Virus record (IMG/VR): IMGVR_UViG_3300043010_000145
Direction: 5' to 3' (one strand)
Length of the DNA: 64,000 nucleotides
From: a virus
Taxonomy: Duplodnaviria; Caudoviricetes
The translations under genes were made by a program, and so were the position numbers. The notes beneath the pieces were generated by a model. It was given only the letters and a program-made list of their open reading frames with translations, ran no database searches and was not told where the DNA came from. Shown piece by piece: positions 1 through 64,000 of the stretch. Within the stretch, counting starts at the first letter, position 1; every line of letters starts with the position of its first letter.

Positions 1-2773
1 TACGGATTCTTCTCTGATTGGTACAACTTATAAGATAGCATTAGAATATGGCGATGATGTATTAGAATTGCCATATTACCATAACGGTGATGATGAAACA
101 GAATTCCGCACAAACTGGAAAGCTTCTCAATATTCTTATGCTGTTGTTGAAGGGCAGAGTGTTATGGTGCTTGTACCATTCGCAGATGAGAAATGGTTAA
201 CAGGTAAATCTTCTGACAATCGTTTTGCTACATTAGATGAGTTCTTTGAATATTATGACAAAGTACTTACTCGTATGGACGAAATTCTTGGTGTTGAGCT
301 GAAAACAACTGACCCAGTTCAGCAGAATGTCCGTGTTCAATACCTTGTAAAAGCCAATGTGAACGGCTGGGGTTCTGCTTATTATACAAGCAGCCATGTC
401 GGAACACATTCAGCAAGTGTTGGTTCTTTCTTCCAAGTCAACTGGGGCGGTTTGCACGAAATAGCCCACGGCTATCAAGGTTCTCTCGGACAAGGTATAA
501 TGAACCTAGGTGAAACAAGCAACAACATATACGGGTACTATATTCAGTCAGATAAATCTATTTACCCATTTGCTGGCAGCTGGCTTGGTGATTTAGATAA
601 GATTGAAACATCTAAAAACACGGGCAGATTGCTTGGTAAATCATTGACAGATTGCGAAGTAGATGTCCGATTATACTTCCTTATCAATTTATTTGATTCC
701 TTTGAAGGTGCAGATACCTATGCAAAAATGAATGCTTGGTACAGACAACAGCTTGTGGACGGACGGTCTATGAACAATGTAGATGCCTATGTGGAAGCTT
801 TGGCGGATATTTACGGTGTAAACATTACTCCTTATATGGAAGCTTGGGGTATGACAGTTTCCCAATCTCTGCAAGAAGAACTGCTCGAACGAAATCTTAC
901 CTTGATGTCAATTGCTTATGACACATCAGATTCTTCTGCACAAATGGTACAAGACGGAACAATTCCACACAGATATTCTCTAGCTACAACAAGTGATTAT
1001 GCTACCGTAGGGGAAACAGGTTATTTAACAATTCAATTTGATACAGATACACCAGAAGATGTTATCGGTAAATTTGTAAAGATTTATGACGGAGATACCG
1101 TTGTAGCTATGCAACAGATTGAATCCGTTACAGATACTTTGACATTTTCAAATCTTCCAATTGGAACATATCAGGTAAAGCTGCCAGCAGTAGATAATTA
1201 CGAACAGAACTACGGGTATGCAACAGTTAAGCCAGATAGATATACAACCTATACTGCTACATATACACCAATGGAAGTATTACCAATCAACGATACACCA
1301 GTGTTTATGTTCTATGGTTGGTATGACACTTACGGTTTGAAATTGGCTTTCAATGATGATTATTCTCAAATGACTGTATCATTTGGACAGGCAAACATTA
1401 TTTCCAGCGACCCGTATGCAGTTGTTACATCAGCAGACGGAACGGAAAAGATGCGAGAAGCGATTGCAAGCACAACAAACGGCAATTACTTTGATTTCAA
1501 CAAAGGAACTTACACATTAGACCTTGAAGTTGGTGATGAAATCACTTTATCCTATGCAAGTCAGCACAGAATTATGGTTCGTAATGCTCTTACAAATGAG
1601 AATATTACTTCTTTGAAGCCTACAACAAAAACAACAACTTATGTTGTAACAGAAAATGGTTTAGTGCCAAAAGGTACAGACGAACAAGTTGTTATTGATG
1701 AGATTTACGAACAGACAAAAGTGTATCTGAAAAATATCATTGATACTTATAAAGCAGAAGTTACACAAGATGAATTAGAAAATCGCTACATTAACTTTAA
1801 GGAAAAAGCTAAAGTAGTTGCAGCCTACAATCAGTTGCGAGAAGAAGACCAAGAAGAATATGCCAGCTTTATTCAGCAGATTTTAAATGGTGGACTTCCT
1901 ACTGCCACATATACAGGTATTACAACTTTGGATAATACAAAAACAAGCAAATTGCCAAATTTCCTAGACTATGTTACCGTGCAAGATAACGAGGACGGAA
2001 ATTACCTTGTAAAAGCCGAAGTGAAGCAAAGTATTGATATTAAAACTCCAAAAACTTATCCAGTAATCATTACGGTATACGATTCTGACGGCAATACAGA
2101 TACGATTACATTTGACTTTGTTGTAACAGGAAAGGCAGCTTCTAAGCCTAGTACTTCTACTTCCAATTCAAGTTCTTCAACAAAGCCAAGTACAGATACA
2201 GAGACTTCCAACACAACTGACAATCGGGTTGAAATCAAAATCCCAGAAAAAACTGAGGACGAAGTAGAAATTACAGAGAAAGGCACTACCTTTGGAAATG
2301 GTAGTGATACAGGTGTACGTATGATGTTACATAAATTTATTCTGCCAGCTGTTACACTTGGTGTAGCTGCTGTATATGCTGCTACGAAATTGGTAAAACG
2401 AGAAGAAGATGAAGACGGTAATGTTACTTACACTATGGAAGTGAAAGTAAAAAATCCGTTTAACGAACCCGTTGATGATGAAGTAGTAGATACAAGAGCA
2501 GAGCATTCTGATGAAGAAGCCGATGCCGAACCAAAGGTAGAAGTAGAAGATAAGCCAGAAGAACAATCCGAAGCAGAGGATAAACCAGAAGCAGAGGAAG
2601 AAGTTCAGACAGAACAGCCAGAAGCAGAGGAAGAAGTTCAGGCAGAACAGCCAGAAGCAGAGACAGAACCAACAACCAAAGCCGATGAATGCGAATGCCC
2701 AACAGTTGAGCTTGTTCTGGACGAAGAAGTAAAAACAGTTATTATTCCATTAGAGGAAGAACCAAAAGAATAA
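1..2773 (+). CDS. M60-like/enhancin family metallopeptidase (putative mucinase), surface-anchored; 5' partial
   Basis: Frame open from window start; GGLHEIAH...GETSNN gluzincin motif; Ig-like segment (TVQDNEDG...YDSDGN); SDTG plus hydrophobic helix plus KR, then an acidic repeat tail. Confidence 0.85.
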   Translation, partial: TDSSLIGTTYKIALEYGDDVLELPYYHNGDDETEFRTNWKASQYSYAVVEGQSVMVLVPFADEKWLTGKSSDNRFATLDEFFEYYDKVLTRMDEILGVELKTTDPVQQNVRVQYLVKANVNGWGSAYYTSSHVGTHSASVGSFFQVNWGGLHEIAHGYQGSLGQGIMNLGETSNNIYGYYIQSDKSIYPFAGSWLGDLDKIETSKNTGRLLGKSLTDCEVDVRLYFLINLFDSFEGADTYAKMNAWYRQQLVDGRSMNNVDAYVEALADIYGVNITPYMEAWGMTVSQSLQEELLERNLTLMSIAYDTSDSSAQMVQDGTIPHRYSLATTSDYATVGETGYLTIQFDTDTPEDVIGKFVKIYDGDTVVAMQQIESVTDTLTFSNLPIGTYQVKLPAVDNYEQNYGYATVKPDRYTTYTATYTPMEVLPINDTPVFMFYGWYDTYGLKLAFNDDYSQMTVSFGQANIISSDPYAVVTSADGTEKMREAIASTTNGNYFDFNKGTYTLDLEVGDEITLSYASQHRIMVRNALTNENITSLKPTTKTTTYVVTENGLVPKGTDEQVVIDEIYEQTKVYLKNIIDTYKAEVTQDELENRYINFKEKAKVVAAYNQLREEDQEEYASFIQQILNGGLPTATYTGITTLDNTKTSKLPNFLDYVTVQDNEDGNYLVKAEVKQSIDIKTPKTYPVIITVYDSDGNTDTITFDFVVTGKAASKPSTSTSNSSSSTKPSTDTETSNTTDNRVEIKIPEKTEDEVEITEKGTTFGNGSDTGVRMMLHKFILPAVTLGVAAVYAATKLVKREEDEDGNVTYTMEVKVKNPFNEPVDDEVVDTRAEHSDEEADAEPKVEVEDKPEEQSEAEDKPEAEEEVQTEQPEAEEEVQAEQPEAETEPTTKADECECPTVELVLDEEVKTVIIPLEEEPKE

Positions 2774-2864
2774 AGATTTAAAGAGTTTTTGCAAAAGCAA
2801 AAACTCTTTTTCATTTTCTTTAATTTTTGTATTGCTTTCTATATTACAATATGCTACTATATAC

Positions 2865-3005
2865 ACACCAACACAAATGCAGCCTGTGTTGGAAGAACAT
2901 TTCGCCCATTTGATGAGTTGTGGGCGATTATTATCCTTTCTTTTATACTTTACAAATCGAATACAAATTTTGAGGACCCTCCACAGCCGAGGGTTCTTAT
3001 TTTTT
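2865..3005 (+). ncRNA. Putative small RNA with exposed anti-SD tract
   Basis: TTGCTT-17-TACTAT promoter (2832-2860), two hairpins, TCCTTTCT at 2934-2941, terminator GAGGACCCTC/GAGGGTTCTT plus T run; no credible ORF. Confidence 0.5.
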
Positions 3006-3055
3006 GTTTGTTTATCTATCTTTCTTATTCTATAATATTTGTAGAGGTACAAGAC

Positions 3056-62429: not shown

Positions 62430-62585
62430 TTTAATATCCTCCCGTACCGCATTTGGTACTTTTATCTTACATCTATACTATACACCCATTTTCTACATAT
62501 TGCAAGCAAAATAATAGCATAATACATATTTTTTCAGGCAAAAACAAAAAGGAAATCATACATTCGTATGATTTCCTTTTTTACT

Positions 62586-63182
62586 CTAAGCCAAGTATTC
62601 AACCATGAATTCTTGTGCCGCATTTACACATTCTAAGCCAAGCTGATAGCATTCAGGTTCTTCCGCAATCCGTTTCCAGAAAGTATCCTCACAAGAAGGA
62701 TAACTGCTGTCTTGTTCCTCGAACAAACCAACGGTATAAGTATATGGCTGATAAGCATCTTTTGACTGGAAGATAACCATTCGGAATGCATCGCCAAGTG
62801 CAGATTTTAATTCAAAGAGATAAGCAGCAATCGTATCCTCTTCATCACCTTCATCTGTTTCCTCATAAATGTGTTGATACATTCTGCATGTGCTTGTTCT
62901 TTTCAATGGAGTATACAATGTAGGCAGTTCCAGATGCTCGAAGTAAACATATTCCAATTTATCTTGTAATGCATTTCCCGATTCCTCAAAAGCTGTTTTG
63001 TCTACATGGCTGCGAACATTTATCTTATGACCTTGGGTATTGTTGTGGAGTGTCCAATCTTGCACTTCTTTTCCATGCACATGAAAGCTATAATTTCCGT
63101 TTGCAATAGAAACATTTTCTTTTGCATCATGTTCTCTTGTGTAGTAATTTTTGCTTTCATCTGTAAGTTTTAAATTCATCAT
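62586..63182 (-). CDS. Paralog array member
   Basis: SALGDAFRM; AAQEFMVEYLA; GGAGG RBS. Confidence 0.8.
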   Translation of the reverse strand: MMNLKLTDESKNYYTREHDAKENVSIANGNYSFHVHGKEVQDWTLHNNTQGHKINVRSHVDKTAFEESGNALQDKLEYVYFEHLELPTLYTPLKRTSTCRMYQHIYEETDEGDEEDTIAAYLFELKSALGDAFRMVIFQSKDAYQPYTYTVGLFEEQDSSYPSCEDTFWKRIAEEPECYQLGLECVNAAQEFMVEYLA

Positions 63183-63611
63183 TTTTCATATCCTCCCGCA
63201 CCGCATTGGGTACTTTTATCATCTGTCTACACTATACACCCACTTTTTACATATTGCAAGCAAAACAATAGTATAATACATATTTTTCAGGCAAAAACAA
63301 AAAAACAGATATGCACTAGCATATCTGCTCTTTTTCTCTTACAGTAGCAGTTTATGTAGAAAAATAAGAGCCGAAGCTCTTACCCTTCCACAAAGGTACC
63401 TACGTTGACCATAACTACTAGCAGCTGTGTCTAACATTGCTTATAGAAATCCTCTGGCTTCTAAAAAGATAATAGATACTGCTAGTAGCTATTTATAGTA
63501 TATCACCCACTAATATCTTTTGCAAGCATTTTTATAAGAAATTTTTCAGATGATTTATACAGTAAATACATTATTTATGTAGTATTTTTCTTTAAAACTG
63601 GTTGCTGCTAT

Positions 63612-64000
63612 TTACACCATAAATTCTAGGACAAAATCCTGCAAAGCTGGAATACTTTCTTCACACAACTCAAAATATTCTGGCACACCTTCTGTCTTCT
63701 GCCACCCTTCCTCAGAATTCTGAGCCTTTCGCCACCAACTCCAAGCTTTACTGCTGCCGCATATTGTTACACCAACCTTTGTGTTCTCCAACAGTTCACT
63801 ATAAAGAAATACTTCATTTCCCGAAAGACTTTGCATACCATAGAGATGCTCCGTATGTCCTTCCCTATCGCTTCTGCTATAATTTTCACCTGTAAAATGC
63901 AACGGTGTGATTGCATCATAAAGTACAATATTGCTTAAACCAAGATTGTTCAGTACAAAATCTTTCACCTTTGTAGAGCAGTAAATCTTGTTTTTATCGA
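63612..64000 (-). CDS. Paralog array member, 5' partial
   Basis: Frame open to the window edge; SLSGNEVFL; ALQDFVLEFMV. Confidence 0.75.
   Translation of the reverse strand, partial: DKNKIYCSTKVKDFVLNNLGLSNIVLYDAITPLHFTGENYSRSDREGHTEHLYGMQSLSGNEVFLYSELLENTKVGVTICGSSKAWSWWRKAQNSEEGWQKTEGVPEYFELCEESIPALQDFVLEFMV

Follow-up and report, generated by a model that had tools for sequence, protein, structure and literature searches.

A one-strand GGGTA signal shared by giant conjugative plasmids related to pXO16

The 64,000-nucleotide stretch of IMG/VR record IMGVR_UViG_3300043010_000145 (hereafter the window) carries the hexamer GGGTAT in large excess on one strand, whichever way its genes are directed. 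We find that the window represents an accessory part of a large conjugative element and that a one-strand signal with the core GGGTA is a hallmark of giant conjugative Bacillota plasmids related to pXO16 (pBTHD789-1, NC_018516.1), the 350-kb circular, aggregation-mediated conjugative plasmid of Bacillus thuringiensis sv. israelensis. The signal acts on a single strand at the DNA level and is element-specific, uniform around the molecule and independent of gene direction. Polar architecture words such as Chi, the FtsK-orienting polar sequences (KOPS) and the SpoIIIE recognition sequences (SRS) have been described in chromosomes, where host machinery recognises them. Here, an equally strong polar architecture motif is owned by a plasmid family and does not switch around the whole circle.

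In the window, GGGTAT occurs 82 times on the plus strand and 10 times on the minus strand (89% on one strand), which makes it the most strand-skewed of all hexamers. Markov models of orders 0, 1, 2 and 3 predict 10.7, 6.7, 12.0 and 23.3 plus-strand copies, respectively. The 10 copies of ATACCC on the plus strand are at chance level (10-14 expected under the Markov models), and dinucleotide shuffles yield a both-strand total of 16.8 ± 4.0 with a maximum of 30. The copies are spaced 768 bp apart on average and are distributed more evenly than random. A preliminary description of the window, made from the sequence alone, had reported that the excess is restricted to the plus strand, with a mean spacing of about 800 bp. 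Both statements are confirmed by our counts (82:10, with 7-23 expected per strand).

The placement of the copies is independent of the genes. A rough gene map, for which open reading frames (ORFs) were scored by codon usage, assigns 32 kb to plus-strand and 14 kb to minus-strand genes. GGGTAT is found at 1.18 copies per kb in plus genes, 1.14 in minus genes and 1.58 in unassigned DNA, and uses all three reading frames. Of the 82 copies, 38 fall within plus genes, 16 lie antisense in minus genes and 28 are in unassigned DNA. The bias therefore persists in non-coding DNA and in the minus-strand blocks (4:1 and 12:1; Table 1), as had been described before. When synonymous codons were shuffled within each gene, a procedure that keeps both the protein and the codon usage, the plus genes contained 11.0 ± 3.1 copies as opposed to the real 38, and the minus genes 4.1 ± 1.8 as opposed to 16. 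The earlier statement that the excess is not a matter of codon usage is thus upheld: it vanishes neither in this shuffle nor under the higher-order Markov models, and its polarity does not follow the direction of transcription.

The sequences flanking GGGTAT are nearly uninformative, except that the base at position -1 is not G and that T is preferred at +7, and single-mismatch variants of the word are not enriched in the window. This means that the unit is the exact hexamer and not a dispersed repeat, which we also ruled out as the source of the word on the grounds that its flanks are not conserved. A variant of the ribosome-binding site was ruled out as well, since the word is found within genes in every frame and also on antisense strands. 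DNA uptake sequences and uptake signal sequences are abundant 9-12-mers with conserved flanks, and their strand polarity is not strict. The present signal is unlike those, with a core of 5-6 nt, uninformative flanks and 89% (window) or more than 94% (relatives) of its copies on one strand.

Overlapping public contigs extend the same polarity beyond the window, by ~3 kb on the left side and ~9 kb on the right. On the left, two assemblies stop at the identical point, which ends the extension there. Three further public contigs (L054-L056), which stem from the same samples as the contigs of the window, harbour a VirB4/FtsK-type transfer operon that belongs to the window's own element. Its VirB4-like protein is 47% identical to the homologue on L014, a metagenome contig described below, and the FtsK position is occupied by a 793-aa homologue without a recorded Pfam match. 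Downstream of the transfer genes follow YceG, an intein-bearing methylase, TelA and PARP. In the region of the transfer operon, GGGTAT occurs 25:1 in favour of the sense strand of the transfer genes, and this bias persists across four genes on the opposite strand. The window's element therefore shares with pXO16-like plasmids a tip-like transfer operon, consisting of a VirB4-like protein, small membrane proteins and an FtsK/SpoIIIE-like position. It differs from the one-strand gene layout of the family in having genes on both strands; the window represents an accessory region of the element, and the core is seen in part. A C5 DNA methylase that is split by an intein (Hint and Intein_splicing Pfam matches) is located at L054:17360-19321, some 40 kb left of the window.

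Only two genes of the window have informative relatives, namely a SNF2-family helicase and its HipA-like neighbour. SNF2 homologues on metagenome contigs show 46-51% identity, and the range is 39-49% for the metagenome contigs L011 and L014 together with G001 (IMGVR_UViG_3300045988_187936, L019-L026), a sequence of 140,467 bp with the IMG/VR label provirus. The HipA-like protein is 25-32% identical to its relatives in the same three sequences. On the metagenome contigs, the SNF2 gene adjoins genes for a VirB4-like ATPase, an FtsK/SpoIIIE-type ATPase, an ArdC-N/MPTase protein and other functions of conjugative elements. A SNF2 helicase is present in all members that were examined around their transfer genes, and in these members an ATPase with an FtsK_SpoIIIE domain adjoins the VirB4-like ATPase; in G001, only the VirB4-like protein (39% identical) was located. 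The SNF2 and HipA-like genes are adjacent in the window (29139-32064) and in L014 (8615-11554), and lie at ~10.2-11.1 kb and 35.2-36.8 kb in G001.

All three relatives carry the signal. GGGTAT is found 35:0 in the 11.8 kb of L011 and 65:0 in the 21.5 kb of L014, where the orientation is opposite to that in L011. The SNF2 gene of L014 lies on the opposite strand and contains two copies in the polarity of the element and none in its own sense. In G001, the counts are 306:17 for GGGTAT and 660:52 for GGGTA, with the same bias in every 5-kb bin. Despite its provirus label, G001 looks like a fragment of a giant plasmid. Pfam scans of its 81 ORFs of at least 180 aa turned up no capsid or terminase family, and the only phage-like matches were a tail-lysozyme-type hydrolase and T4 Gp30.7.

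Among PLSDB records, the FtsK-like protein is matched best (~25% identity, compared with L014) by pXO16, in the form of the 350-kb plasmids of B. thuringiensis sv. israelensis. In pXO16, a SNF2 homologue lies beside the FtsK gene, the transfer (tip) region has the same gene order, and at least 55 collinear genes are common to it and G001. The signal is present here too, with 363:17 copies of GGGTAT and 930:46 of GGGTA. Here the motif takes the form AGGGGTA[T/G], as GGGGTA occurs 658:5 (~65 expected) and AGGGGTA 461:2 (~29 expected). Each of the 35 10-kb bins into which the closed circle was divided shows this polarity. A switch at the origin or terminus, for which the preliminary description had proposed to look, is thus found neither over the 350 kb of pXO16 nor over the 140 kb of G001. 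The window's element and pXO16 belong to the same family, and in both the signal with its GGGTA core is confined to one strand, the one that is sense for the transfer genes. They differ in that pXO16 has AGGGGTA[T/G] instead of GGGTAT, all of its genes pointing one way and a strongly G-rich motif strand, whereas the window's element has genes in both directions, many cargo genes for defence and surface proteins, and no G-rich skew on the motif strand.

The VirB4-like marker falls into at least 222 protein clusters, and the contigs that encode it reach 577 kb. In each of eight lineages, with proteins of only 25-66% identity, the GGGTA core lies on the strand in which the transfer genes read in sense, so that its polarity relative to them is the same throughout. 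Among them, L057, whose marker protein is named Clostridium baratii in NCBI, has GGGGTA 32:1, and L059, another metagenome contig of 241 kb, has GGGTA 45:2. Under an order-1 Markov model, GGGTAT is the most over-represented hexamer in the window, L011, L014 and G001. In pXO16 and L057 this place is taken by GGGGTA, with GGGTAT ranking third in pXO16; in L059, none of the five most over-represented hexamers contains GGGTA. Sites occur about once per 0.3-0.8 kb with few long gaps. The family thus shares the core GGGTA, which appears as GGGTAT or as GGGGTA. No mention of a polar GGGTA word was found in two open reviews on pXO16 or by full-text searches, the primary pXO16 papers being outside this coverage. 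The signal is conserved between a Bacillus plasmid that is amenable to laboratory work and uncultured elements that reach ~0.6 Mb, and counting GGGTA separately on each strand is an easy means of identifying, orienting and binning metagenomic fragments of the family. We do not place the window among the Inocles of oral Streptococcus, for which an ori/ter switch, VirD4 and the marker InoC have been reported (PMC12340149).

Plasmids that reside in the same B. thuringiensis strain as pXO16 provide a control for the influence of the host. Their GGGGTA counts on the two strands are 55/54 (pBtic360), 19/15 (pBtoxis) and 15/21 (pBtic235), equal to those of a control word. Since these three plasmids are not enriched, the word belongs to the element and is not imposed by the replication, repair or segregation machinery of the host. 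In addition, the motif is not enriched on three plasmids of B. subtilis, Parageobacillus and S. aureus whose FtsK-type coupling proteins are more distant. On pXO16 itself, neither the Bacillus Chi word AGCGG (83 copies, 91 expected) nor the SpoIIIE word GAGAAGGG is enriched.

Could the excess be a by-product of strand composition, of codon or dipeptide preference, or of a context-dependent mutation bias, with no dedicated function? In G001 and pXO16, all genes lie on one strongly G-rich strand, which raises the number of G-rich words; the reversed control word is also skewed in pXO16 (111:10), and Markov models of order 3 or 4 absorb part of the excess. However, in the lineage of the window, including L054, the GC skew of the motif strand at neutral sites (four-fold degenerate and intergenic) is C-rich or neutral, about -0.12 to -0.3, as opposed to the G-rich values of +0.16 to +0.39 in pXO16, G001 and L014. 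The motif strand of the window lineage is not G-rich at neutral sites, and the excess can therefore not be reduced to GC skew. The exact word is also 3-6 times commoner than the reversed control and the one-mismatch variants, and the core is common to diverged lineages. Further points against a by-product are the survival of the excess in the synonymous-codon shuffle for genes of either orientation and the equal density in intergenic DNA and antisense to minus genes. Finally, in each of the five sequences tested the sites are more regularly spaced than expected at random (coefficient of variation 0.70-0.85). In pXO16, the largest gap between GGGGTA sites is 2071 bp, as compared with 3760 bp expected (P<0.0005). 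This even spacing and the missing long gaps argue for selection on coverage. Taken together, we consider an origin without function most improbable. A replication terminus at 42-53 kb of the window, where gene direction and raw GC skew flip, was likewise found to be unsupported, as the skew at neutral sites does not flip.

Polarised words can also arise from restriction. The strand bias of the EcoP15I site in phage T7 reflects evasion of type III restriction, where one orientation has been lost or is absent. The GGGTA signal resembles this case in being an asymmetric hexamer with a single orientation on an element that has its genes pointing the same way. It differs in that the rare orientation is at chance while the common one is enriched 6-16-fold: the reverse word is at chance level in G001 (17 copies, 11-19 expected) and at most mildly depleted in pXO16 and L014. 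Evasion of a restriction system that needs inverted sites (type III or type ISP) therefore does not account for the pattern, the rare orientation being depleted neither in the window nor in G001. A related idea is that the motif acts as an RNA-level signal, for instance for an RNase or in antitermination, or as the target of an asymmetric methyltransferase or restriction-like enzyme. In line with this, nearly all copies in the core regions are transcribed in sense, and the window encodes an Eco57I-type N6 methylase and two C5 methylases. Yet the window's antisense copies in minus genes and its copies in unassigned DNA (16 and 28) occur at the same density, the reverse orientation is not depleted, and escape from restriction would not explain a 6-16-fold enrichment. 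The Eco57I-type methylase, moreover, sits in a variable stretch and is found on only two contigs. We therefore regard a role at the RNA level or in DNA modification as very unlikely.

What, then, may read the signal? GGGTA would be recognised by a factor encoded by the element while a unidirectional process passes along the entire molecule and presents the motif strand alone as single-stranded DNA. Candidate processes are a one-way (rolling-circle-like) replication or single-strand conjugative transfer. In pXO16 and G001, neither GC skew nor gene direction ever switches, and a 2018 review states that pXO16 is transferred as single-stranded DNA (PMC6199540). We propose, with a probability of about 0.4, that the signal is read on the single strand exposed in such one-way replication or transfer, most likely as a preferred initiation site of the family's own DnaG-type primase. 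On the template 5'-GGG-T-A-3', the primase would synthesise a primer pppACCC, with A as the uncopied 3' base. Selection may have enriched and evenly spaced the sites, because in this AT-rich DNA (31-36% GC) a G-rich 5-6-mer is expected by chance only every 2-5 kb, which would be too rare.

A primase is indeed encoded by the family. The collinear core of G001 and pXO16 holds a DnaG-core primase, a DnaB-like helicase, a clamp-loader subunit, a topoisomerase II and UvrD, and a FEN nuclease was found in G001. The G001 primase matches DNAG_N and Toprim_2 above the Pfam cut-offs, and its pXO16 homologue, encoded at 44,525-45,325 of NC_018516.1, is 35% identical. The gene for the DnaB-like helicase of pXO16 is located at 181,072-182,535. 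The T7 primase gp4 uses GGGTC, from which it makes pppACCC. The preliminary description had drawn this analogy, and the form of the site fits it: 5'-GGGTA-3' likewise consists of a run of G, a T and an uncopied 3' base. The likeness extends to the primases of Firmicutes, which start at d(CTA) or d(TTA) from the middle T, so that GTA shares their TA end (PMC2978363).

Several points weigh against a primase site. The family primase is a catalytic core of 252-266 aa that lacks a CxxC or other zinc module, while the template specificity of bacterial DnaG is set by the zinc-binding domain (PMC2978363). The analogy to T7 is also weakened, as the pentamers used by its primase show no enrichment and no strand bias in the T7 genome. 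The primase sites known so far are three nucleotides long. The primase is known from G001 and pXO16, the corresponding part of the window's replicon being out of reach. Lastly, all genes of pXO16 and G001 lie on the motif strand, so that the signal may there act at the RNA level.

No DnaE/PolC alpha domain was found on G001 or pXO16, and no DNA polymerase is recognisable despite the homologues of primase, helicase and clamp loader. Both encode very large conserved proteins (1440-2402 aa) without any Pfam or PDB sequence match. A PDB sequence search with the DnaB-like helicase and two of the giant conserved proteins likewise gave no useful match.

Instead of a primase, a DNA translocase may read the motif. 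KOPS (GGGNAGGG, FtsK) and SRS (GAGAAGGG, SpoIIIE) are short, G-rich polarised words that orient motor proteins. They belong to the host chromosome, with roughly one site per 10 kb, change polarity at ori and dif and are recognised by the gamma domain of FtsK. In a similar fashion, GGGTA could guide the FtsK/SpoIIIE-type coupling ATPase or the SNF2 helicase, so that the plasmid would be pumped preferentially and in one direction. The word is over-represented and almost fully polarised, and extreme polarity combined with even spacing is typical of translocase guides. The elements encode an FtsK/SpoIIIE-family ATPase beside the VirB4-like ATPase (with the exception of G001 stated above) as well as SNF2 in the members examined, and the polarity is fixed with respect to the transfer genes in all lineages. 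pXO16 transfer is also unusually fast at ~4 min per transfer, and no relaxase or origin of transfer (oriT) has been identified for this plasmid according to a 2022 review (PMC9673590). On the other hand, the GGGTA signal is plasmid-owned, is 10-30 times denser than KOPS or SRS and stays uniform around the pXO16 circle and along G001 rather than switching. The FtsK gamma domain (PF09397) was not detected on G001 or pXO16 at E<=1, in a search that matches 12 of 14 control genomes, and the FtsK-like proteins end in an acidic, low-complexity tail. Other plasmids with FtsK-type coupling proteins do not have the motif, and pXO16 also mobilises motif-free DNA, namely small plasmids and the chromosome (PMC9673590). 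A translocase guide thus appears unlikely to us.

A Chi-like function would see the motif attenuate a helicase-nuclease or load a recombinase at double-strand ends, and thereby protect the linear tails or broken forks of one-way replication. Chi sites, such as AGCGG in B. subtilis, are set by the host enzyme (RecBCD or AddAB), are common to the replicons of a cell and differ between genera. GGGTA is comparable to short Chi sites in being G-rich, over-represented and strand-biased, with dense and even coverage, and the elements encode UvrD-like, RecD-like (AAA_30) and SbcCD-like proteins. It is not the Chi of the host, as the co-resident plasmids show no enrichment and AGCGG is not enriched on pXO16. 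Unlike Chi, the core is kept across different hosts, in elements of 31-42% GC from Bacillus, Clostridium-like and uncultured hosts, and its polarity (~99% in members with one gene direction, 89% in the window) is far above the typical bias of Chi. In addition, no PD-(D/E)XK nuclease domain of the AddAB/RecB type (PDDEXK_1) was found on G001 or pXO16. We consider this possibility quite improbable. Of the interpretation in the preliminary description, a polar signal at the DNA level is supported, which belongs to the architecture motifs in general, with a primase site as the leading candidate. The Chi-like and KOPS-like types that depend on host machinery are not supported, given the unenriched co-resident plasmids, the missing gamma and AddAB-type domains and the lack of enrichment of Chi and SRS words on pXO16.

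The window also contains a type I-C system of clustered regularly interspaced short palindromic repeats (CRISPR). Two arrays, which share one repeat, flank the cas set (33184-41327). This repeat was not found in IMG/VR, in GTDB genomes or in the metagenome contig collection, and Cas8c has at most 28% identity to any protein in plasmid or phage records. The motif is present in 3 of the 26 extracted spacers (917 nt in total), once in forward and twice in reverse orientation, with ~0.35 expected. This enrichment suggests that the plasmid-borne type I-C system targets sibling plasmids. The preliminary description had called three motif-bearing spacers among 30 weakly consistent with sibling targets, and the idea receives mild support.

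It is tempting to combine these observations into a broader picture, which we put forward as a tentative and rather doubtful scenario. The dense one-strand code may mark the strand that is exported as single-stranded DNA and be read, in the recipient or the donor, by the element's own machinery such as its primase, its coupling ATPase or a further factor, allowing it to convert or move hundreds of kilobases in minutes. GGGTAT and GGGGTA would then serve as compatibility labels, and the CRISPR spacers would be a record of warfare between sibling plasmids. From the motif, one can predict the strand that is handled in single-stranded form. It may thus provide a handle on pXO16-type conjugation, in which 350 kb are transferred in ~4 min and no relaxase or oriT has been identified.

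Table 1. Coordinates of the motif set and other features in the window, with the evidence for each.
Feature	Coordinates	Strand	Basis
GGGTAT set, 82 copies on + and 10 on -	1..64000	+	Counts, spacing statistics
SNF2-family helicase gene; link to the plasmid family	29139..30677	+	One of only two window genes common to relatives
Conserved neighbour of the SNF2 gene, predicted HipA-like kinase fold	30682..32064	+	Atlas structure neighbours
CRISPR array 1; one spacer with reverse motif (ATACCC at 33667)	33184..34192	+	Spacer extraction
Type I-C cas3-cas5-cas8c-cas7, without cas1, cas2 and cas4; motif 7 vs 1	34280..40089	+	Gene content, motif count
CRISPR array 2; two motif spacers (GGGTAT at 40380, ATACCC at 41128)	40314..41327	+	Spacer extraction
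Block of minus-strand genes; motif still + oriented, 4 vs 1	42619..45456	-	Motif count
Gene-poor stretch, rich in repeats and hairpins; peak motif density, 16 vs 1, 2.6 per kb	46807..52933	+	Motif count
Tandem array of ~190-aa paralogous genes; motif + oriented, 12 vs 1	53931..64000	-	Motif count

At the nucleotide level, the window has no match in phage, plasmid, IMG/VR or GTDB collections, and scans of genome, viral and metagenome contigs with the TagF, Cas8c and M60 proteins returned no match either. Its genes encode three DNA methylases (the Eco57I-type N6 and the two C5 enzymes mentioned above), two Cas3-HD-like proteins, giant DUF285/LRR surface proteins, an M60 peptidase and a TagF-like enzyme. 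The two Cas3-HD-like proteins adjoin each other at 14652-17124, distant from the cas operon. Each consists solely of a Cas3-type HD domain, and their genes are separated by a tract of 17-bp tandem repeats. Stacks of tandem repeats with periods of 15, 16, 17 and 32 bp are found in gene-poor DNA at 46900-48740 and at 15710-15930. The motif is densest immediately to the right of the former stack, at 48.8-53.7 kb.

At the right end of the window, the array of ~190-aa paralogues and the polarity of the motif run on for ~9 kb in contig L004. The window portion (53931-64000) and L004:1-20597 together contain more than 25 paralogues of ~180-240 aa, all on the minus strand and without a Pfam family, and their copy content differs among metagenome contigs.

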